From assembly GCA_039924685.1 (NCBI GenBank), contig JBDTAI010000209.1, positions 1 through 37,083 of the forward strand: DNA of 37,083 bases, in the 5' to 3' direction. A program made the position numbers and the translations under genes. The DNA comes from Ktedonobacterales bacterium (GTDB lineage Bacteria > Chloroflexota > Ktedonobacteria > Ktedonobacterales > JADMIN01). Of the stretch, positions 3,328 to 20,807 are shown piece by piece. A model generated the notes under the pieces. The model did not search any database. It was not told the DNA's origin and saw only the letters and a list, made by a program, of their open reading frames with translations. Positions within the stretch are counted from its first letter, which is position 1. Each line of letters begins with the position of its first letter.

Positions 3328-3416
3328 GGGGCGGTGGTGAAATGGTAGACACAGCGGACTTAAAATCCGTTGCCGGCCAACCCGGCGTGGGGGTTCGAGT
3401 CCCCCCCGCCCTACCA
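3328..3416 (+). tRNA. tRNA-Leu (anticodon UAA), class II with long variable arm, CCA encoded
   Basis: Folded by hand. Acceptor GGGGCGG / CCGCCCT (G1-U72 wobble). Anticodon stem gcgga / tccgt with loop cuUAAaa. Long variable arm gttgccggccaacccggcg. T arm GGGGG-TTCGAGT-CCCCC. Discriminator A followed by CCA. Confidence 0.9.
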
Positions 3417-8866: not shown

Positions 8867-10465
8867 ATGGCCGCTCAGCGGATACAGCCATCTTCCGGGA
8901 AGCAGAGATCGCGTTGTGGCGCGCTGCTGATCGCGCTTGTCGCGGTCCTCGCCGTCGCGCTGGCAGGCGTCGCGCTGGCCTACATCCACTTTGCGCCGCT
9001 GGCAGGTTTCGGCGTGTCATCCACGAAGACGCCGACGCCGCCTACCTATTCTCTCGTGGGTGGCGGGCGCTGTGTCACGCTGGGGTCGCATCCTACTGGG
9101 CCATACGCCAATGTGCAGGTCAGCCATGATAGCTTCCTTGCGCACAGTGAGCCAATGCTTGCCGAGAATCCGGCCAATCCGCTGCAACTGGTGGGCGGCT
9201 CCAAGTTCTTCACCAATCCAGCGAAGTATGCGTTCCAGATCGGCTACTTCTCTTCTTCGGATGGTGGCTGCACCTGGACCGACGGCGGATTGCTGCCGGG
9301 CTACGCCGACCGGGGGCGCGTCTCGGACATCACTATGGCGTTTGGCCCTTCGGGTCACGTCTATGCGCTTGTGCTGTACCTGGCAAAAGACTTCATAGAA
9401 AGCGGCATTGCAGTCTCGACCTCGACGGATGGCGGCAAGACGTTCGGCCAGCCGGTCGCTGTCTATGATAATCCCACAGGCGCCGTCTTTGGCGACAAGC
9501 CCTGGATTGCTGTGGACATGTCGCATGGGCCGCATCGTGGCGCCGTCTATGTCGCCTGGTCGTATGATACGGGTGCTCCCTGCGGCTATGGCAACTTCTG
9601 CATCCAGCATCTTGGCGTTGCGCGCTCGGTGGATGGCGCGCGCACATTCTCGCCAGTGCAGTTCACGGAGGGCAACGCGCCTTTCTGCACGAATGCTGTG
9701 CCGGGCCGGGCGCTTGGCGATACGCGCTGTGACAGCGTGCTGGGCGCGACGCCGGCGGTCGAGCCAGATGGCACACTTGCCATCGCCTACGCCTACTTCG
9801 ACCTGACCAGCGGCATTCAGGGGCGTCCGCTGATCCCGACGAGGCTGGTGGTGGTCACATCGCATGATGGCGGGCAGACATGGTCCACGCCCGTCCGCGC
9901 CGTAACGGTTCACGATACGCCACCCGTTGTCCCGCCCGATGACTACCGCGCATTTCCGCTGCCAGCCTTCGCCGCTGACCCTTCTACCAGCGGCAGGCTC
10001 TATCTTGCCTGGATGGATGAGCAGCAGGGGCAGAGCAATATCCTCGTCGCTACCTCACGCGACGATGGGCAAACGTGGTCTGCGCCGCTGCGAGTCAATG
10101 ACGGACCATCGGGCAGCGGGGCCACCAAAGCCGATAACGCCTCGCAGCCCGCGCTGGCGGTGGCGCCGGATGGCGTGGTCAGCGTCATCTTCTTCGATGC
10201 GCGCAACGATCCCACCCATCACCTGCTGGACCTCTACCTGACGCAATCGCGCGACCATGGGGCGAGTTTCACGTCGAACATCCGTGTGACGACGGTGAGC
10301 AGCGATCCTCGCGCGGGTGGGCCGCGTGATGAGGGTGGCCAGCTCTTCTTCGGTGACTATCAAGGGCTGGCGGCAGACAACGCCTTTGTCCACCCCTTCT
10401 GGAACGACACCCGCACCGGCAGTCAGCAGATCGAGACCGCCGCTCTCCCCAGCATCCAGCCATGA
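8867..10465 (+). CDS. Membrane-anchored BNR/Asp-box repeat protein (sialidase-like beta-propeller)
   Basis: N-terminal TM segment ALLIALVAVLAVALAGVALAYI. Five Asp-box-like motifs: SSDGGCTW, STDGGKTF, SHDGGQTW, SRDDGQTW, SRDHGASF. Confidence 0.85.
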   Translation: MAAQRIQPSSGKQRSRCGALLIALVAVLAVALAGVALAYIHFAPLAGFGVSSTKTPTPPTYSLVGGGRCVTLGSHPTGPYANVQVSHDSFLAHSEPMLAENPANPLQLVGGSKFFTNPAKYAFQIGYFSSSDGGCTWTDGGLLPGYADRGRVSDITMAFGPSGHVYALVLYLAKDFIESGIAVSTSTDGGKTFGQPVAVYDNPTGAVFGDKPWIAVDMSHGPHRGAVYVAWSYDTGAPCGYGNFCIQHLGVARSVDGARTFSPVQFTEGNAPFCTNAVPGRALGDTRCDSVLGATPAVEPDGTLAIAYAYFDLTSGIQGRPLIPTRLVVVTSHDGGQTWSTPVRAVTVHDTPPVVPPDDYRAFPLPAFAADPSTSGRLYLAWMDEQQGQSNILVATSRDDGQTWSAPLRVNDGPSGSGATKADNASQPALAVAPDGVVSVIFFDARNDPTHHLLDLYLTQSRDHGASFTSNIRVTTVSSDPRAGGPRDEGGQLFFGDYQGLAADNAFVHPFWNDTRTGSQQIETAALPSIQP

Positions 10466-10535
10466 CCGCCGACGTATCAGTGCAGGAGGAAATCGTAACT
10501 TCTTCATCACGAGGATTCACAAGTACCACATCCTC

Positions 10536-10564
10536 TTGCTTCTTGGATTGCTAGCTGTTATACT
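10536..10564 (+). promoter_or_regulatory. Near-consensus sigma70-type promoter of the low-GC islet
   Basis: TTGCTT (10536-10541), exact 17-nt spacer, TATACT (10559-10564). It lies ~90 nt upstream of the ATG at 10658. Confidence 0.5.
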
Positions 10565-10657
10565 CACTCCATTACTAGCGCGCGAGAGGTAGTTCAGCCT
10601 CACATATTCCTATTCTCTGTTTTGCACGTCCTTTGGTTTACGTTAGGACGGAATGAA

Positions 10658-11989
10658 ATGACGCAACCCTTGCACATCCCGCCAGAGCAGGAGGAACTGT
10701 TCCGGTTCACATTCAAGTCGCCCATTGATGATCACATTCGACGGTTGACGCCGGTTGAGTATGGACGGTTCATCTACTACCTTTTCCAACGAGATGGGCT
10801 ATACCATCCTGTGCTTGTCGATGGTCCAGGTGATGGTGGTGTGGACATCGAGTTGTATGCCCGTAATGGCGTCAATCCTGAACTGTGCGGTGTTGTGCAG
10901 TGCAAGCGATTCCTTCTTGAGAAAGTCACTCCCAACGACCTCGCGCCCGTCATTGTCGCCGCCAACATGGCAAAAATTACACGAAAGTATTGTTTTACGA
11001 CCTCTGGGTACACGCCCCCAGCGCGTGCTTCTGCTCGCAACAACGACGTCAAGCTATTTGACTCTGCTGACGTGCGATTCTGGATTCAAGACATAACGCG
11101 CCGCGAATCTTTAAGAACGCAGTCTCCTAATCTCCCAGACCTCGATAGCATGCCTATACCTATCATTTGTGTCACCAACAACAAGGGAGGGGTTGGCAAA
11201 ACCACACTTACTGGCAACTTGGCTGCTGCCTTTGCTACTGAGCAGCACAATGTTTTGGTTATTGACGCCGATCCACAAGGTCATTTAACCTCCTGGTTGA
11301 CAGATCAGCGACACAATGCTCCTGCGCTATCTCTACATGCCGTGCTGACACAAGACGTTCCCATTTATCCCCTTATGCAGAGAACAACAGAAAAAGGCGT
11401 TTGGATTCTCCCATCCACTCAGGAGTTGCATGAGCTTCCGGGGGGACATAATGCATGGACATTTGAGCGCAAACTAGCCCATGCGTTGGCGGCGCTACCA
11501 CTTTCTGATCCACCCATTCGCTATGTCCTAATCGATACTCCTCCTGGCTTGGGCTCCATAACGCGGTCAGCAATGCTTGCAGCCAAGTCGTTGCTGATAC
11601 CGCTGCAGCTTGAGGTGTTTTCGCTTGAAGGGCTAGATGCACTGTTGGGCTTTATTGTCCAGACCGAAACGATTCACCAGAAGAAACCGCTTCAGATATT
11701 AGGAGGAGTGGCAACACGCGTGGATATGCGCTTTCGCTGGGGGTTTCGGTTTCGTGATAGGTTTGATTTACAGAATCGCCCGCGCTTGCAGCAATCAGGG
11801 CTTACTGATGAGCAATTCTGGTGTGGGCTGTTGCGGGAGCGAGGGGAATACAAGAAATCGCAAGCCGAACACCAGTCTGTTCTTCAATATGCGCGTCGTT
11901 CTGATGCTGCCGATGACATCTGGCAGTTGGCACAGGAGGTAACACATCGTGTACCCATACTCACCCACCTTGATACCCGAATCACCTAG
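10658..11989 (+). CDS. Fusion protein: N-terminal Mrr-type restriction endonuclease (PD-(D/E)xK) domain + C-terminal ParA/MinD-type deviant Walker A ATPase
   Basis: Nuclease part: LTPVEYGRFIYYLF, GDGGVDIE, VVQCKRF (D...QxK as in Mrr), CFTTSGYTPPA, KLFDSADVRFWI. ATPase part: NNKGGVGKTT, VLVIDADPQG, YVLIDTPPGLG, C-terminal SVLQYARRSDAADDIWQLAQEV. ATG at 10658 with aggacgga upstream is preferred over the TTG at 10622. Confidence 0.85.
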   Translation: MTQPLHIPPEQEELFRFTFKSPIDDHIRRLTPVEYGRFIYYLFQRDGLYHPVLVDGPGDGGVDIELYARNGVNPELCGVVQCKRFLLEKVTPNDLAPVIVAANMAKITRKYCFTTSGYTPPARASARNNDVKLFDSADVRFWIQDITRRESLRTQSPNLPDLDSMPIPIICVTNNKGGVGKTTLTGNLAAAFATEQHNVLVIDADPQGHLTSWLTDQRHNAPALSLHAVLTQDVPIYPLMQRTTEKGVWILPSTQELHELPGGHNAWTFERKLAHALAALPLSDPPIRYVLIDTPPGLGSITRSAMLAAKSLLIPLQLEVFSLEGLDALLGFIVQTETIHQKKPLQILGGVATRVDMRFRWGFRFRDRFDLQNRPRLQQSGLTDEQFWCGLLRERGEYKKSQAEHQSVLQYARRSDAADDIWQLAQEVTHRVPILTHLDTRIT

Positions 11990-12488
11990 TGTTAGCGATT
12001 CAGATTTCGCCAGCGATGCGGTTGAGACCCACGTGCAGGCGATTCTCACCGAGTTAGAGGAACTCCCCTCTGACGTACAGTTGGCTGTCTACACACGCTT
12101 GCTGAGTGGACTGACAAACAAGCTCACGTCGACCTTAGTCAAGAATGCGCTGGCTGCCGCAAAGGTTGATCAGCAGACACCCAAGCCGAAAGGAACTATC
12201 CGCAAGGCCACTTCGGCAGGACAGAAAGCGACAACTGAGAGCGTGCCGCGCGCAAATTCGATGTTGCGCCAACTGAATGATCCTTTTGATCCCATAGAGG
12301 CATGGCGGCGATTCGGCGGTAGCGCCGCTGAGATGCTTGATGTTTTGCGTGAGGAACCACAAGGTGTTCTGGAAGCAATGCTGAGACATCACAATATGCC
12401 ACCTGGACCAAAGCCACGAGGCAAATCGCGAGAAAAACTGGCGGAAGCTATTGCTCTCAGATTGGAGCAACAGTTCCGGGGCGCCTAA
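11949..12488 (+). CDS. Hypothetical partner protein of the nuclease-ParA fusion (helical N-terminus, Lys/Thr-rich linker, helical C-terminus)
   Basis: 179-aa ORF with balanced, helix-like composition; the antisense ORF is Cys/Ser/Leu-rich junk. GTG 11949 overlaps the upstream gene by 41 nt; TTG 11970 is an alternative start. No motif recognised. Confidence 0.6.
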   Translation: MYPYSPTLIPESPSVSDSDFASDAVETHVQAILTELEELPSDVQLAVYTRLLSGLTNKLTSTLVKNALAAAKVDQQTPKPKGTIRKATSAGQKATTESVPRANSMLRQLNDPFDPIEAWRRFGGSAAEMLDVLREEPQGVLEAMLRHHNMPPGPKPRGKSREKLAEAIALRLEQQFRGA

Positions 12489-12635
12489 TACCAAGTTTGT
12501 CTGGGTTCTTGTAAAAGATTGGCGCCATTGGAGGAATCTCCACGTCTTGAGCCAACGTCAAGCTATAAGCACCTACCTCACACCGGGATAACACCTACCG
12601 TCATGGTACCTCAACAACTGTAAACGTCTGACAAC

Positions 12636-12674
12636 ATCAGCCCTCCACCTGCACAATACAAGCGGAGGGCTGAT
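12636..12674. terminator. Hairpin between the convergent islet operon and lpd
   Basis: 11-bp perfect stem atcagccctcc / ggagggctgat with a 17-nt loop. Confidence 0.55.
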
Positions 12675-12699
12675 ATGTTCGGTTGTATTGTGGCGCTAG

Positions 12700-14136
12700 C
12701 TACCGGCGGGCAGCGGCAGCCGACCGCTGGAAGATGTGGACGGCGCGGCCCTCGGCGGCCAGCGTGGCCTCACGCAGCGCCTCGCTATAGGTCGGGTGCG
12801 GGTGGATGGTGGCGATCACCTCATCCGCCGTCAGCTCGGCGCGCATCGCCAGCGAGAACTCGGTGATCAGGTTGGTGGCGTCCGGGCCAAAGATCGCCGC
12901 GCCCAGAATCTCGCCATACTCGCCGAGGATCACTTTGGTGAAGCCCTCGGTTTCACCGGTCGCCAGCGCCTTGCCGTTCGCCACCCAGGGGAACTTGTCG
13001 GCGCGCACATTGCCACTGCGTTCACGCGCCTGTCGCTCCGTCAAGCCGACCGAGGCGATCTCCGGGAAGGTGAAGATCGGGCGCGGCACGATGTTGTAAT
13101 CCATCACGGCGTCGTGGCCCAGCGCATGCTCGGCGGCCAGCTCGCCCTCCATCATGGCGACGTGCGCCAGCCAGGTCTTGCCCACCAGATCGCCGATGGC
13201 ATAGACGCCCGGCAGGTTGGTTTGCAGGTGATCATCGGCCACTACGCGCCCGCGATCCATCGCCAGCCCAGCGCGGATCAGGCCGTCGAGTCCGGCGGGG
13301 TTCGCCTTGCGCCCGACCGCCACCAGCACATACTCGGCGTCAAATGCCTTTTGCTGGCCGTCGCTGGCCGTCGCCGTCACGCGCTTCCGGCCATCGGCGT
13401 CGGCGATGGACTCCACCTTCGCGCCGACCGCAATCTCCACGCCGCGCTTGCTGAGTGAGCGGGTGAGCGCCTGGCTCACCTCTTCATCCTCGTTGGCGAT
13501 GATGGCAGGCAGCATCTCGACAATCGTAACCTTTGTTCCCAGCGCATTGAACATGCAGGCAAGCTCGACGGCGATTACTCCGCCGCCAATACAGACCAGG
13601 CTTTCAGGAACCTTCGGCATATTCATCGCGTCGTCGCTGAAGATCACATTGCGCCCATCCAGGCCAGGGAACGGCGGGGTGATCGGCACAGAGCCGTTGG
13701 CGAGGATCAGCTTGCCCGTTTCGAGTTCCTGCGTCGTGCCGTCTTTCAGGGTCACGCGCACGCGGTTGGGCGCCAGCGTCTCGGCGCTGCCCTCGAAGAT
13801 GGCGACCTTGTTGGCCTTGAGCAACTGCGCCACGCCGCCGGTAAGTTGCTTCACCACCTTGTCCTTGAAGGCGACGGCCACGCTCATATCCAGCGTTGGC
13901 TCCGCATTCAACTTGATGCCGAGCTTGTCGAGTTCGCGCAGTTCGGCGTAGATTTGGGCGATGTGCAGCAACGCCTTCGAGGGGATGCAGCCCACGTTGA
14001 GGCATGTACCGCCGATATACTGCTTCTCGACGATGCCCACCCGCGCGCCAAGCTGCGCCGCGCGGATGGCGGCGACATAGCCACCGGGTCCCGCGCCGAT
14101 CACCAGCACGTCGAACTGCGAATTTTCGTTTGCCAC
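12700..14136 (-). CDS. lpdA: Dihydrolipoyl dehydrogenase (E3 component)
   Basis: FDVLVIGAGPGGY FAD fold and the redox disulfide GGTCLNVGCIPSK. GTG start at 14136 with GAGGAG 6 nt upstream. The 47-aa upstream extension in the ORF track has no Lpd-like sequence. Confidence 0.93.
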   Translation of the reverse strand: MANENSQFDVLVIGAGPGGYVAAIRAAQLGARVGIVEKQYIGGTCLNVGCIPSKALLHIAQIYAELRELDKLGIKLNAEPTLDMSVAVAFKDKVVKQLTGGVAQLLKANKVAIFEGSAETLAPNRVRVTLKDGTTQELETGKLILANGSVPITPPFPGLDGRNVIFSDDAMNMPKVPESLVCIGGGVIAVELACMFNALGTKVTIVEMLPAIIANEDEEVSQALTRSLSKRGVEIAVGAKVESIADADGRKRVTATASDGQQKAFDAEYVLVAVGRKANPAGLDGLIRAGLAMDRGRVVADDHLQTNLPGVYAIGDLVGKTWLAHVAMMEGELAAEHALGHDAVMDYNIVPRPIFTFPEIASVGLTERQARERSGNVRADKFPWVANGKALATGETEGFTKVILGEYGEILGAAIFGPDATNLITEFSLAMRAELTADEVIATIHPHPTYSEALREATLAAEGRAVHIFQRSAAAARR

Positions 14137-14481
14137 AAGGTACTCCTCGCAGGCGATTCCACAGCGCCCAGGTCGTATGCCCAGGCCGCAAATCGCTCTG
14201 TCTCTTTCTATGTCGCGCCGACCCCCATTGGCCGACGGCATCACCACATCGTTCACAACAAAGCCATATATCAGCATATCACCGTCAGTATATGATATGC
14301 GACGGGGCCGCGCTGGTAGTGGGTGGCGACCTGGAGCAGGCGGGTGAAGCGCATCATAGTATCACGAGAGGCGCTCGTGGTACACTGATACCATATATTC
14401 CGCTGCTACCTGAGAACAAAGGTACGTCAAAGACGGCTGCCGTTCAACGTGTGGAATGTGTGTGGAGGCGACGCGAGGCTT

Positions 14482-17201: not shown

Positions 17202-17636
17202 TGCTGTGGCTCCTCTCGAAACTGTCTCGGAAAGACACTCTGCTGATACTATTCATCAAGCTGGGTACATCGCGCAATGAGGGCGTCCGAGGGTACGCGG
17301 CTCCCTCATGCATATAATAGTTGATTTGTATTGATTTGTCCAGGGCGGCGCCAAAACACACCGAAATTGATCCGCAACGCGCCGACGTCGGCATGCGACG
17401 CTATCGGCACGATCCGGCGCATGTAGCGTAATGCCCGAATAGTAGCGACTTCGCCGGAGTTTTGGTGTGACACTGTTCCATATACGGCAGTTCCGAATGA
17501 ACGCTACGCATGTGTGCCTTTGCGTAGCAGCCCTTGCGCGCGATATGTGGATTACACTTGATTGCGCGAAGGTGGCGCAAAGATGGCACATGGCGCCACT
17601 TGCGCGCCAGGCGGCATATACGCCAGAGACGAGGTG

Positions 17637-17645
17637 TGCTAGAAT
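17637..17645 (+). promoter_or_regulatory. Possible extended -10 promoter (TGcTAGAAT)
   Basis: TGc + TAGAAT lies ~135 nt upstream of the ATG at 17781. Confidence 0.35.
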
Positions 17646-17780
17646 GGCGGCATTGCGGTTCGCCCGCTGCACGGCAGGGCGGTCTCAGCCTTGAAGGGCC
17701 AGAGCCAGAGTACGGACGACGTGGGCCTGAAAGCCCTGTAGCAGTGGCACGTTGAGGACGGCAGAAAGTGAGCGCGACCG

Positions 17781-18911
17781 ATGGCGTCACGCCCAGATAC
17801 GGCCACAGATACGGCCACAGATACGGCCACGCCTGCTCCGCCCCCTGCCAACGTCGGCGTCGTTGACGGATGCAGGTCAGGTCGCCCATCCAGCAGCATC
17901 CGCTTCGACTGGCTGATGCTGGCGGTGAGCGCCTGGCCACTGGCGGGCGCGTTGAGCGACGCCTATGCGCACATCAATGAGCCGGGGCTTGAGACCTTTT
18001 TCACCCCCTGGCATGCGCTGCTCTATTCAGGGCTGATCGTCGTCGGCGGCTGCAACGCGCTCGTGCTCTGGCGCAACCACAGGCAGGGTTATGCGTGGAG
18101 CCGCGCCATCGCGCCGGGCTACGAACTGACGCTGGTGGGGGTCTGCGTGCTGGCGGTCGCCGGTGGCCTCGATCTGATCTGGCATACGCTGTTTGGCATC
18201 GAGCGTGACGTGCCAGCCATTGTCAGCCCAACACACATCCTGATCGTCATTGGCATCCTGCTGATCGTCGCCGGGCCGTTGCGCTCGGCGTTCAGCCGAC
18301 CGCAGGGGCAGGATGTGCGCGGTTGGGCGCAGGCGCCGCTGATCCTCTCGGCGCTGCTCACCTATACCATGATCACCATCGTCCTCGAACTGACCAGCCC
18401 ATTCTCGTATCGCTGGGCCTCGGTGGGCAACGTGGACCTCTTCGCCAATACGCCCTACCCGCCAGTGGACTCATATCTCAGTCAGGGTTTCGGACTGATG
18501 AGCCTGATGATTCAGAGCGCGCTGCTGATGGGCCTGGTGTTGACGCTGGTGCGGCGCTGGCGCTTGGCGCCCGGCGCGCTCACGCTCTTGATCGGCGTCA
18601 ACGCTCTATTGATCAGCGCATTGATGACGGATTTCTCGCTGGTTCCGGGGATGTTTGTGGCAGGTATCGTCGGCGATCTGCTGCTCTTCTTGCTGCGCCC
18701 GGCGCCGGATCGGCGACTGGCGTTCCGCCTGTTCGCCTTTCTGCTGCCCGTCGTGGTCTATGGCGCCTACTTCGTCAATCTCGACCTCGTCTCCGGGGTG
18801 GTCTGGATCATCCATCTGCTCTTCGGCTCCATCATGGTCACGGGCCTGATCGGCCTGGGGATCAGCTATCTCGTGCTGCCGCCAACGCGCGCATCAGAGG
18901 CGCACGCATGA
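17781..18911 (+). CDS. Polytopic integral membrane protein, function unknown
   Basis: 376-aa ORF with roughly 10 hydrophobic segments and GC3-rich codon usage. No catalytic motif recognised. Confidence 0.7.
   Translation: MASRPDTATDTATDTATPAPPPANVGVVDGCRSGRPSSSIRFDWLMLAVSAWPLAGALSDAYAHINEPGLETFFTPWHALLYSGLIVVGGCNALVLWRNHRQGYAWSRAIAPGYELTLVGVCVLAVAGGLDLIWHTLFGIERDVPAIVSPTHILIVIGILLIVAGPLRSAFSRPQGQDVRGWAQAPLILSALLTYTMITIVLELTSPFSYRWASVGNVDLFANTPYPPVDSYLSQGFGLMSLMIQSALLMGLVLTLVRRWRLAPGALTLLIGVNALLISALMTDFSLVPGMFVAGIVGDLLLFLLRPAPDRRLAFRLFAFLLPVVVYGAYFVNLDLVSGVVWIIHLLFGSIMVTGLIGLGISYLVLPPTRASEAHA
17795..17830 (+). repeat. In-frame 12-bp tandem repeat x3 (agatacggccac) encoding DTAT-DTAT-DTAT
   Basis: Read directly. 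It lies in the N-terminal region of the 17781 CDS. Confidence 0.85.
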
Positions 18912-19045: not shown

Positions 19046-19054
19046 TGCTATTCT
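19046..19054 (+). promoter_or_regulatory. Possible extended -10 promoter (TGcTATTCT) for clpP
   Basis: It lies ~70 nt upstream of the ATG at 19123. Confidence 0.35.
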
Positions 19055-19122
19055 GTAGGTACGATACGCGACATTGGAAACAGCGTGTTCTGTGGCGCCA
19101 TCGTGTACAGAGGAGCAAAGTT

Positions 19123-19806
19123 ATGGCATCGCATATGCAACATCCCTTCGATCCCGCCGCCCTGAAGTGGCTGGCCGGTGACAAGCCGCTGCCCGCCCCA
19201 GTGAGCGTGCTTGTGCCGAATGTGATCGAGTCCACCCCGCGTGGCGAGCGCGGCATGGATATCTATTCCCGCTTGCTCAAAGAGCGCATCATTTTCATCG
19301 GCACGCCGATTGACGATACGGTAGCCAATCTGGTCGTCGCACAGTTGCTCTTCCTTCAGAGCGAAGACGCGACCAAAGACATCAGCATGTACATCAACAG
19401 CCCCGGCGGCAGCATCTATGCGGGTCTGGCGGTCTATGACACCATGCAGTACATGAAGCCCGATGTGGCGACATTCTGCATGGGCATGGCCATGAGCATG
19501 GGCGCCGTCTTGCTGGCGTCGGGCGCAAAGGGCAAACGCTACGCCCTGCCCAACTCGACCATTCTGATCCACCAGCCGCTGGGCGGCGCCGAGGGCCAGG
19601 CGGCAGACATCGAGATCACTGCGCGTGAGATCATGCGGCTGCGCGACGCGCTCTACCAGATTCTGGTGCATCATACCGGTCAGTCGCTTGATGTTATCAA
19701 GCGCGACTCTGACCGCAACTACTACATGAGCGCCGAAGACGCCCTGAAGTATGGCATTGTGGACGAAATCCTCACGCCAAGTCAGGAACTCGCCACCACG
19801 CGCTAG
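19123..19806 (+). CDS. clpP: ATP-dependent Clp protease proteolytic subunit
   Basis: [21 protein letters not shown], catalytic Ser region [11 protein letters not shown], His region [16 protein letters not shown] lies upstream of the ATG at 19123. The ORF-track extension back to 19024 is not ClpP-like. Confidence 0.93.
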
Positions 19807-19875
19807 GGAACTTGTCGCCGACCTGTGACAATCGGGCGATACGCAACGTAGTAGGCAGTGAATGATGGTTTGGGT

Positions 19876-19911
19876 AGCCCTGGGGTAGCAGTTATCGCTT
19901 GCCCCAGGGCT
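19876..19911 (+). terminator. clpP terminator hairpin
   Basis: 10-bp perfect stem agccctgggg / ccccagggct with a 16-nt loop, followed by gttcgtgt. Confidence 0.55.
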
Positions 19912-20072
19912 GTTCGTGTCTGGCATGGGGCGCGGAAGCGCGGCCATCAATGGTCGGCGCGCGGCACGGTGGCGTTCGGTCAGCGGGTAAACCCGCGCCG
20001 CTGGGCGCTCACGCGCCACGAAGCCTGCCTGCGCAGGCAGGAGAATCGTGTGCGTGGATCGGAGGCGGCTGA

Positions 20073-20807
20073 ATGGCGGTGACAGAGAGGCAGGAGCAGG
20101 TACAGCCATCGGCTCCGGCGCGCGCGCGGATGTTGCGCTTCCTCTTCGGGCTGCTCTATCGCAATCGCACGCTCTACTGGCTTGCCAGCACGATTCCCTT
20201 TGCCGGACAGTGGCGCGTGTGGCAGCGACTGGCGGTTCCGCGCATCGTCGGCGCGGATGTATTGGAGATCGGCTGCGGCATCGGCAAACTGCTGGCGGAT
20301 ATGGTTCAGGCGGGCTATGCCTGCACAGCGGTTGATCGCTCACCGCAGATGGTGGCGGCCACACGCGGAGAACTGCGTCGGCGCGGCCTGCCCACCGACG
20401 CGGCGCCCGTGCTGCTGGCGAGCGCGCAACGGCTGCCCTTTCCGGCGGCATCGTTCGATACCGTGGTCAGCACGTTCCCGACCGACTATATCTTTGATCC
20501 TGCCACACTGCATGAGGTGGCGCGGGTCTTGCGTCCCGGCGGACGACTGATCATTGTGATGGGCGCCGAGTTGCTGCCTGCGCGGGCGGCGTTGGTCCCA
20601 TTGGTGGCGCTGCAAACGCTGGTATATGGCCGTCGTGGCGAGGCGTCTGGCGCCGGGCGAGCAAATTGCGCGCTTTCGACTACTTCCGGCCTGGGCAAGG
20701 CGCTCACCGAGGCGGGGTTTTTGCCGCAGGCCGAGTGTGTGGCGGGGCCATTCTGGCAGGCGTACCTGCTGCTGGCCGAACGCTCCGACATGGCCGACGT
20801 AGTATGA
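20073..20807 (+). CDS. Class I SAM-dependent methyltransferase
   Basis: Motif I VLEIGCGIGKL and post-motif LRPGGRLII. Confidence 0.8.
   Translation: MAVTERQEQVQPSAPARARMLRFLFGLLYRNRTLYWLASTIPFAGQWRVWQRLAVPRIVGADVLEIGCGIGKLLADMVQAGYACTAVDRSPQMVAATRGELRRRGLPTDAAPVLLASAQRLPFPAASFDTVVSTFPTDYIFDPATLHEVARVLRPGGRLIIVMGAELLPARAALVPLVALQTLVYGRRGEASGAGRANCALSTTSGLGKALTEAGFLPQAECVAGPFWQAYLLLAERSDMADVV

Follow-up and report, generated by a model that had tools for sequence, protein, structure and literature searches.

What use could a bacterium have for a protein in which a restriction-type nuclease is joined to an ATPase of the class that positions chromosomes and plasmids? This question is raised by a gene of a Ktedonobacterales bacterium from soil (GenBank assembly GCA_039924685.1, contig JBDTAI010000209.1), located in a stretch of 37,083 nucleotides that is called here the window. 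An initial annotation, made from the letters of the DNA, had proposed that one open reading frame of the window fuses an Mrr-type nuclease to a complete ParA/MinD ATPase, and that the product could be a nuclease gated by ATP and DNA. The fusion gene is followed by a small gene, whose product is named the partner in what follows. We find that the two genes form an autonomous, dispensable and horizontally exchanged cassette, and not a housekeeping partition system. It most likely serves to defend the cell against invading DNA, or else acts as an addiction module resembling a toxin-antitoxin pair.

The first step in answering the question is to establish that the fusion is real. Its 443-residue product is identical to an NCBI entry described as 'MAG: AAA family ATPase [Ktedonobacterales bacterium]'. 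A TTG at 10622 is possible as an alternative start, but the homologues begin at the position of the ATG. All the motifs quoted in the initial annotation are present in the reading frame: LTPVEYGRFIYYLF at residues 30-43, GDGGVDIE at 58-65, VVQCKRF at 79-85, CFTTSGYTPPA at 112-122, KLFDSADVRFWI at 132-143, NNKGGVGKTT at 174-183, VLVIDADPQG at 199-208 and YVLIDTPPGLG at 289-299. The Pfam search that it had recommended places both the Mrr-type domain and the ParA-type ATPase above their gathering cutoffs. AlphaFold, run with a family alignment of 26 full-length members (37-67% identity), returned one confident two-domain chain with a pLDDT of 88 and a pTM of 0.86, the latter indicating a fixed arrangement of both domains. 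The model is laid out as an alpha/beta nuclease fold (residues 9-134), a long helix (136-154) and a ParA fold (169-431). In the interdomain helix, which we take to be rigid, W142 and I146 are invariant, and R148/R149 almost so, across the 26 sequences of the alignment, to which all statements on conservation in the fusion refer. The same full architecture was found in about 30 independent clusters from different samples, which, together with the single confident chain, rules out an assembly artefact. Pfam, NCBIfam, PADLOC and PHROG give nothing for the fusion beyond its two domains. When the whole model was compared with the PDB by Foldseek, Soj/ParA structures were retrieved with target TM-scores of 0.78-0.87, matching the C-terminal half, and among the matches listed none convincingly spans both domains.

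The Mrr_cat match of the N-terminal half covers positions 1-111 of the 115 in the Pfam profile. Residues D59, D63 and Q81 are invariant and K83 is kept in at least 90% of the members. Alignment of the profile of this domain with Mrr of E. coli K-12 gave an hhalign probability of 96.8%, and 30% of the 104 aligned columns are identical; D63 is paired with Mrr D203, and Q81-C-K83 with Mrr Q219-A-K221, in agreement with the proposal that the domain carries the D...QxK arrangement of Mrr itself. The D203A mutant of Mrr is catalytically dead, and the activity of this enzyme is controlled by its oligomeric state, the tetramer being inactive and the dimer active (PMC5435990). The winged-helix domain Mrr_N gave no Pfam match in the fusion at E values up to 1, and the catalytic domain is preceded by 26 residues only. 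The domain profile found no relative among solved structures, and the nuclease domain alone as a query retrieved four fragments of its own family and no non-fused Mrr relatives.

The C-terminal half is a deviant Walker ATPase of the Soj type. AAA_31 matches residues 169-339 with 115 bits (cutoff 27), and CbiA (63.6 bits) and ParA (38.8 bits) are likewise above their Pfam cutoffs. The deviant Walker A motif with the signature lysine K176 and with K181, the Walker A' residues D203/D205 and the Walker B residue D293 are all in place, and these five residues and T182 are invariant. The catalytic residues of both modules, described as intact in the initial annotation, are thus kept across the homologues, and judging from the alignments both catalytic centres look functional. 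Candidate residues for a DNA-binding patch can also be pointed out. R358 aligns exactly with R182 of Thermus thermophilus Soj (TtSoj), the equivalent of R189 of BsSoj, and is an arginine in only about 20 of the 26 members; TtSoj R208 and R211 align one residue off the near-invariant R393/R395, with K399/K400 nearby. The BsSoj R189 position is needed for DNA binding (PMC6393308), and the alignment suggests that the ATP dimer has plausibly kept its DNA-binding surface. In the alignment with TtSoj the last helix (residues 416-431) is paired with the one that ends that protein, so that the ParA-type C-terminal helix noted earlier is the normal end of a ParA fold, and a C-terminal membrane helix as in MinD was rejected. 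PHROG labels the ATPase half as a ParA-like partition protein, and all the scores with NCBIfam models of named families are below cutoff: ParA_partition 91 (cutoff 180), RepA 57 (348), SopA 20 (725) and the MinD equivalog TIGR01968 48.6 (212.9). There are no min genes nearby.

The small gene downstream is the obligate partner of the fusion. Besides the window, nine other loci carry a full-length or split fusion, and in all nine the partner, as a gene of 154-182 codons or as a tblastn match, lies directly downstream. The co-occurrence that the initial annotation had suggested looking for is therefore seen in ten of ten such loci, and in all of them the partner is translationally coupled, or nearly so, to the fusion. 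The reading frames overlap by 41 nt in the window and by 32 nt in four other loci (L001, L002, L004 and L011), and are separated by 4-13 nt in three more (L005, L013 and L014). The NCBI model of the partner (151 aa, ABI068_06720) begins 28 codons too late, leaving out 11949-12032 of the window; we prefer the 179-residue form, because conservation among the homologues extends to the N-terminus encoded from the GTG at 11949 ('MYPYS...') and this codon is preceded, at 9 nt, by an AGGAGG. A fragment of 213 aa from a metagenome (P0184) is a read-through product, with the C-terminus of a fusion homologue continuing in frame into the N-terminal hairpin of its partner, which points either to an indel where the genes overlap or to a naturally occurring fusion of three modules.

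The partner has no relative in Pfam, NCBIfam, PADLOC, PHROG or the PDB, either by sequence profile or by fold (Foldseek). An exhaustive HMM search of 1.84 billion representative proteins gave 33 matches to its profile; with 35 clusters for the partner and about 34 for the fusion, both families are small and of comparable reach. The AlphaFold model has an overall pLDDT of 73 and contains three segments and an acidic, variable tail. The N-terminal segment is a helical hairpin with the invariant residues Q44, R50, L51, L55 and K58 in the family alignment; its pLDDT is 80-90 over residues 21-50 and drops to 63-78 by residue 70. By analogy with the partners ParB, ParG, MinE and McdB, we infer that this hairpin is a candidate surface for contacting the ParA domain. 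A disordered linker with a net charge of +3 follows, whose sequence varies across the family while its basic character is kept. The C-terminal, all-helical domain carries the motif DPxDPxEAW...EPxGVLEAML.H.NMPPGPKPRGKS. The coordinates of all these features are collected in the table.

Table. Features of the cassette, of its flanks and of neighbours of related copies (positions refer to the window unless a locus is given).
Feature	Position	Strand	Basis or remark
Whole cassette	10466..12699	.	Between stop codons of the convergent BNR-protein gene and lpd
BNR-protein gene	8867-10465	+	Left flank of cassette
Extended -10-like element TGTTATACT	10556..10564	+	94 nt upstream of ATG (first base 102 nt upstream)
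Fusion gene	10658..11989	+	ATG to stop, 443 aa, Mrr_cat-ParA protein
Mrr_cat PD-(D/E)xK domain, residues 27-139	10736..11074	+	Pfam PF04471, 43.2 bits against a gathering score of 21
Catalytic candidates D59/D63 in GDGGVD	nt 10829-10852	+	Alignment conservation
Catalytic candidates Q81-C-K83	within nt 10892-10912	+	Alignment conservation
Connecting helix (residues 136-154) and proline-rich linker (155-168)	11063..11161	+	Model secondary structure, pLDDT
Soj-type ParA ATPase, residues 169-432	11162..11953	+	Pfam, Foldseek, conserved motifs
DNA-patch candidates R358, R393, R395, K399/K400	within 11162..11953	+	Alignment to TtSoj
Shine-Dalgarno AGGAGG, 9 nt before partner GTG, within fusion 3' end	11934..11939	+	Sequence reading
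Partner gene, 179 aa, GTG start	11949..12488	+	35 homologue clusters aligned over 99% of length
Partner N-terminal helical hairpin, residues 16-73	11994..12167	+	AlphaFold, invariant columns
Partner disordered linker, residues 74-99, Lys/Arg-rich	12168..12245	+	pLDDT <50 at 74-98
Partner C-terminal all-helical domain, residues 100-177	12246..12479	+	pLDDT 79-93, confident over 105-177
GC-rich hairpin, 16-nt arms, 88% complementary	12636..12674	.	Between partner stop and lpd stop
lpd	12700-14277	-	Right flank of cassette
STAND/TIR neighbours of three copies	L004:3346-4671; L005:6364-8883; L007:256-1437		

That the pair travels as a unit is deduced from its surroundings. The window is ordinary chromosome, with genes for glycogen phosphorylase, APH, fpg, the BNR protein, lpd, an AI-2E transporter, citrate synthase and mutS2, among others. 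Within it, the cassette has a GC content of about 0.50-0.54, compared with 0.62-0.64 in the flanks, and the GC3 values of its two genes (0.52 and 0.54) are the minimum of the window. A GC content below that of the flanks was found in five of the six loci measured (the window, L001, L002, L004 and L009). A sister contig from a metagenome (L018) has the same fpg-BNR-[slot]-lpd-AI-2E synteny, with protein identities of 80%, 84%, 93% and 80%, respectively. DNA homology of the window with this contig stops exactly at the BNR stop codon and restarts at about 12700, at the 3' end of lpd. Instead of the cassette, the slot of the sister contig (2300-4054, GC 0.54-0.57) holds a DUF6883 gene (147 aa), a DUF4926 gene (130 aa), a 74-aa frame with a weak match to HicB-like antitoxins, under the Pfam cutoff, and an 86-aa orphan. 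The DUF6883 frame carries a (GQET)n repeat.

Damage is seen in three copies, and copies in decay show it in both cassette genes. In L010 (3012-3855) the fusion is internally deleted, with residues 7-120, 266-299 and 387-434 remaining, and the partner is truncated; this copy lies on a 5.7-kb contig labelled 'Proteobacteria MAG', which is probably misbinned. A truncated fusion in L007 (8001-8876) lies beside an rve transposase, the sole transposase seen near the copies, and in L011 (1599-2913) the fusion is split by a frameshift, with a DUF262/GmrSD_N fragment upstream. Low GC, exchange of the slot with toxin-antitoxin-like genes and decay in some genomes fit a role in conflict.

The family is narrow, being found in uncultured Ktedonobacterales-like Chloroflexota, and a genome scan with the nuclease-domain profile gave at least two loci. 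The copies are embedded in housekeeping regions of the chromosome. Neighbours are unrelated between the eleven loci examined; an adk-secY-ribosomal operon is found at one place, and RNase J, moeA or a GGDEF/EAL gene together with radC at others. In none of these loci does parB, rep, a methyltransferase or an integrase gene stand beside the copy. The window was profiled for 17 of its 27 open reading frames of at least 150 aa (15 neighbours and the two cassette genes), and no methyltransferase, ParB, replication or integrase gene is among them. The statement of the initial annotation that no such gene accompanies the fusion holds, then, in the profiled frames and beside all ten copies that are full-length or split. 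A search of 72,556 plasmid and 50,697 phage records gave no match to the partner or to the nuclease domain, and none of the best 5,000 plasmid records covers at least 80% of the fusion query or covers its nuclease half. The partition-gene alternative that had been set against the proposal receives no support from these searches, since no homologue appears on plasmid or phage records or next to parB/rep.

Putative signals for expression lie within the cassette. The pattern TGnTAT[AG]nT occurs within 250 nt upstream of the fusion in six of ten loci and in 1.5% of the background windows; in 2,000 shuffles a count of six loci was never attained. We infer that this extended -10-like sequence is the cassette's own promoter element. 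Scans of the cassette for sigma-70 promoters and terminators were uninformative; the GC-rich hairpin after the partner gene has no T-tract and was not called by the terminator scan, and may be a shared, bidirectional terminator of the convergent partner and lpd genes. There are no repeat families above chance and no centromere-like repeats near the cassette, and no 9-mer is common to the upstream or the downstream regions of eight loci. Elsewhere in the window, a tRNA-Leu gene (anticodon TAA, 3328-3416, + strand) is the sole RNA gene according to ARAGORN and Rfam. Two frames on the - strand, at 19048-20451 and 17401-17940, have an unusually low GC3 of 0.60; the 467-aa one, which matches nothing in Pfam, is a candidate for a further foreign gene.

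How would such a pair work? On balance, we lean slightly towards reading it as a conflict cassette, for defence or for addiction, in which ATP-driven ParA dimerisation on DNA would gate the nuclease and the partner would regulate the process. By analogy with Soj/ParA, binding of ATP would produce a sandwich dimer, which would bind DNA non-specifically through the putative basic patch of R358 and R393/R395. The dimer would then unite two Mrr-type nuclease domains on the duplex and so license cleavage. Two half-sites are the usual requirement for double-strand cleavage by PD-(D/E)xK enzymes, and their union by a ParA dimer would match the oligomer-controlled activity of Mrr. The partner hairpin might contact the ATPase through residues such as R50 and K58 and modulate ATP hydrolysis, as ParB, ParG, MinE and McdB do, while the basic linker and the C-terminal helical domain could tether the partner to DNA or to another target. 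In this way the partner would set where and when the ATPase cycles, so that the nuclease either stays inactive on self DNA or is guided to foreign DNA.

An unexpected link to phages comes from the few relatives of the partner. Eight of the 33 are proteins of 301-1043 aa with one or two copies of its C-terminal domain, and the gene context is available for two of these eight, P0172 (1043 aa, L015:8001-11132) and P0175 (942 aa, L016:9001-11829), located on phage-like contigs of 62 kb and 43 kb. The domain of the partner and that of P0172 are 59% identical over 74 aa (E 8.5e-26). The genes of both large proteins occupy equivalent syntenic places, after that of the portal and before those of the head protease/capsid; around P0172 there is a MuF-like minor head protein upstream, and a head maturation protease, an SU10-type capsid protein and a head-tail adaptor downstream. 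Both contigs (L015:1-2761 and L016:3362-6289) encode a portal protein that carries a fused 2H phosphoesterase / 2'-5' RNA ligase domain. P0172 and P0175 additionally have SAP/Rho_N-like repeats, and at the N-terminus both show a 'PDQPR..GRFG' motif and a Cys4 cluster. Similarity of the partner's C-terminal domain to these repeats is weak (hhalign 34-50%, P about 2-4e-4, shuffled controls at most 2.7%) and is a suggestion that the domain could be SAP/HeH-like. A hhalign match of 96% to the SAP-like repeats was discarded, because one partner-type unit had contaminated the alignment; the range just given is the clean value. A phage origin of the low GC of the cassette was also rejected, as the phage contigs have a GC content of about 0.60.

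Multidomain proteins of head modules and portal-2H fusions have been described as counter-defence effectors that are packaged in the virion and injected, and the portal-2H fusion has been put forward as a means of countering defences based on nucleotide signalling (Iyer et al. 2017, PMC5512222). From their setting, P0172 and P0175 look like head-packaged proteins of this polyvalent type. In the phage proteins the domain may simply serve for DNA binding; alternatively, these proteins may be mimics of the partner, or the partner may sense them. A bolder proposal, which we think has a low probability, is that the cassette is an anti-phage system of a new class, in which the ParA/MinD-type switch would arm the fused nuclease on DNA and the orphan partner would be where an arms race with phages makes contact, and that injected decoys having the C-terminal domain of the partner, and lacking its hairpin, would disarm it. 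Chloroflexota phages would then package giant head proteins with one or two such domains and inject them with their DNA, so that the decoys occupy the target of the partner; conversely, the partner could sense the phage proteins through the matching domains.

Among the other explanations, the one that survives best is a pure addiction module, in which the nuclease-ATPase would be a toxin and the partner its antitoxin, maintained by selfish persistence and with no role against phages or plasmids. The compact two-gene operon with overlapping frames speaks for it, as do the TA-like genes that fill the slot in the sister contig (DUF6883/DUF4926 and the weak HicB-like match), the lack of consistent defence neighbours, and the fact that the genes are always paired and decayed copies are damaged in both. 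We still consider it unlikely. Typical type II toxins are far simpler than this protein, which has 443 aa and a complete, conserved ATPase, and the C-terminal domain of the partner, common to proteins of phage virion modules, suggests an interaction with phages. Moreover, many TA-like modules act in abortive infection, so this explanation overlaps with the conflict cassette that we prefer.

A lineage-specific ParA system for partition or positioning, with the Mrr fold as a DNA-binding or anchoring module and the partner as a cargo adaptor like ParG or McdB, is in our opinion clearly improbable. It has some appeal, because the N-terminal domain of type Ia ParAs is a DNA-binding or anchoring module, the Soj-like ParA is complete and has candidate DNA-patch residues, type Ib par and McdAB systems show the same gene order, in which ParA is followed by a small partner containing a disordered basic region, and PHROG assigns the ATPase half to partition proteins. 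Invariance of the nuclease catalytic residues argues against a merely anchoring role, and neither centromere-like repeats nor conserved flanking motifs are found; plasmid and phage records and rep or parB neighbours are lacking as well, and the ParA_partition score is far under its cutoff. Scattered chromosomal positions, foreign GC, a slot that swaps with TA genes and the decay of copies are also difficult to reconcile with such a system. A selfish homing-type cassette, whose nuclease would cut empty intergenic sites and spread by recombinational repair, would explain the scattered insertion between unrelated genes without an integrase (intact copies have no adjoining integrase or transposase, yet their position differs in every genome, with sharp cassette boundaries at gene ends), but it is very improbable, because no flanking repeats or conserved target motif were found, known homing endonucleases need neither a ParA ATPase nor a partner, and the alternative cargo of the sister contig suggests a generally variable slot rather than a specific homing site.

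Several points weigh against the conflict cassette itself. The association with defence islands raised by the initial annotation was not borne out: a pooled PADLOC scan of 64 neighbours from ten loci detected no recurrent defence genes and no recognisable defence island. Most of the neighbour matches are generic domains (a kinase, a cysteine desulfurase fragment); single strong matches to REase_II, mad6 and MkoA were not traced to a gene, and the defence-like neighbours identified are the DUF262/GmrSD_N fragment of L011 and a weak TIR-region match in L005. The latter locus is also the one without a GC dip. The narrowness of the family limits the power of comparison, conserved PD-(D/E)xK residues are not a proof of DNA cleavage, and a ParA gene followed by that of a small basic partner is the classic layout of a type Ib partition operon. 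As for the role in conflict, plain addiction and defence fit the data about equally well. STAND-type NB-ARC/AAA_22 and TIR proteins (TIR-FGE-sulfatase, TIR-TPR) are encoded a few kb from three copies; genes of this kind are common in the genomes concerned, and those seen here have no significant match to a PADLOC system. A protein of 451 aa (P0089) was considered as a case of effector swapping and rejected, being an ordinary Soj with a low-complexity tail.

ParA/MinD ATPases act as switches that position chromosomes, plasmids, carboxysomes or the machinery of cell division, and we know of no case in which one regulates a covalently attached nuclease. If ATP-driven dimerisation does gate an Mrr-type nuclease here, a new NTPase class would be added to the defence and addiction systems that combine NTPases and nucleases, and the cassette would offer a simple, separable model of dimerisation-licensed DNA cleavage. 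The partner, with its orphan fold and its sole relatives in phage head modules, provides a concrete candidate for a host-phage interaction to probe. To our knowledge, phage defence in Chloroflexota, and in Ktedonobacteria in particular, is essentially unexplored. The significance of the finding is limited by the narrow taxonomic range and the uncultured hosts.

It remains to place the cassette among known systems. The initial annotation could not assign the fusion to any named system, and this still stands: no description of an Mrr_cat-ParA protein or system was found in the literature searched, and no model of PADLOC-DB v2 gives a significant match over the full length of either protein. The best hits of the fusion in that database are PDC-M28B (E 7.8e-5, over a 40-residue P-loop stretch) and LmuA (E 0.0018), and the partner has none. 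The type IV, methyl-directed enzyme Mrr (EcoKMrr) has a homologous catalytic domain with the same GDGG(I/V)D ... Q-x-K-R configuration. It differs in having Mrr_N for the recognition of modified DNA, whereas the fusion lacks Mrr_N, carries the catalytic domain at the N-terminus, is joined to a ParA and has an obligate partner. With Soj/ParA proteins (TtSoj 1WCV, HpSoj 6IUB, ParA 8RAY) the fusion shares the full deviant Walker A fold with its signature lysine, as well as Walker A' and B, and the position of BsSoj R189 is an arginine in about 20 of the 26 members, but it adds a nuclease extension of 168 residues and is not accompanied by parS or an iteron array. It is under every NCBIfam cutoff for the ParA, MinD and RepA equivalogs, and is not on plasmids or phages in the records searched. 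As in ParF-ParG and McdA-McdB, a small downstream partner with a disordered basic segment is present; in contrast to those adaptor systems, this partner is unrelated to ParB, ParG, McdB and MinE.

Type II toxin-antitoxin modules resemble the cassette in being overlapping two-gene operons of foreign GC, and the same slot holds DUF6883, DUF4926 and weak HicB-like genes in the sister contig. The differences are that the 'toxin' would be large and is predicted to be ATP-dependent and that the 'antitoxin' is downstream; no homology of the cassette proteins to any TA family was found. Large size, multiple repeats, a location in the head module and the vicinity of a portal-2H fusion are common to P0172/P0175 and the polyvalent, injected phage proteins (PMC5512222), from which these two differ in having no recognisable enzymatic domains besides the SAP/Rho_N-like repeats, and their packaging and injection are putative.

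The closest parallel in logic is given by Lamassu, OLD/Gabija/PARIS, McrBC and Septu, in which a nucleotide-driven module for oligomerisation or translocation controls a DNA nuclease within a compact accessory operon. Lamassu combines an SMC-like LmuB with LmuA effectors, some of them of the Mrr type, OLD/Gabija/PARIS an ABC ATPase with Toprim, and McrBC an AAA+ GTPase with a PD-(D/E)xK subunit; the weak PADLOC match to LmuA mentioned above falls on the nuclease domain of the fusion. These systems rely on SMC/ABC, AAA+ or helicase motors, whereas the fusion uses a dimerisation switch of the ParA/MinD class (SIMIBI). In the cassette, moreover, a single polypeptide comprises nuclease and ATPase, the second protein is an orphan, and the system lies outside all PADLOC models. 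We think that the cassette most likely represents a type of ATP-gated nuclease that has not been described before and that acts in conflicts with invading DNA.

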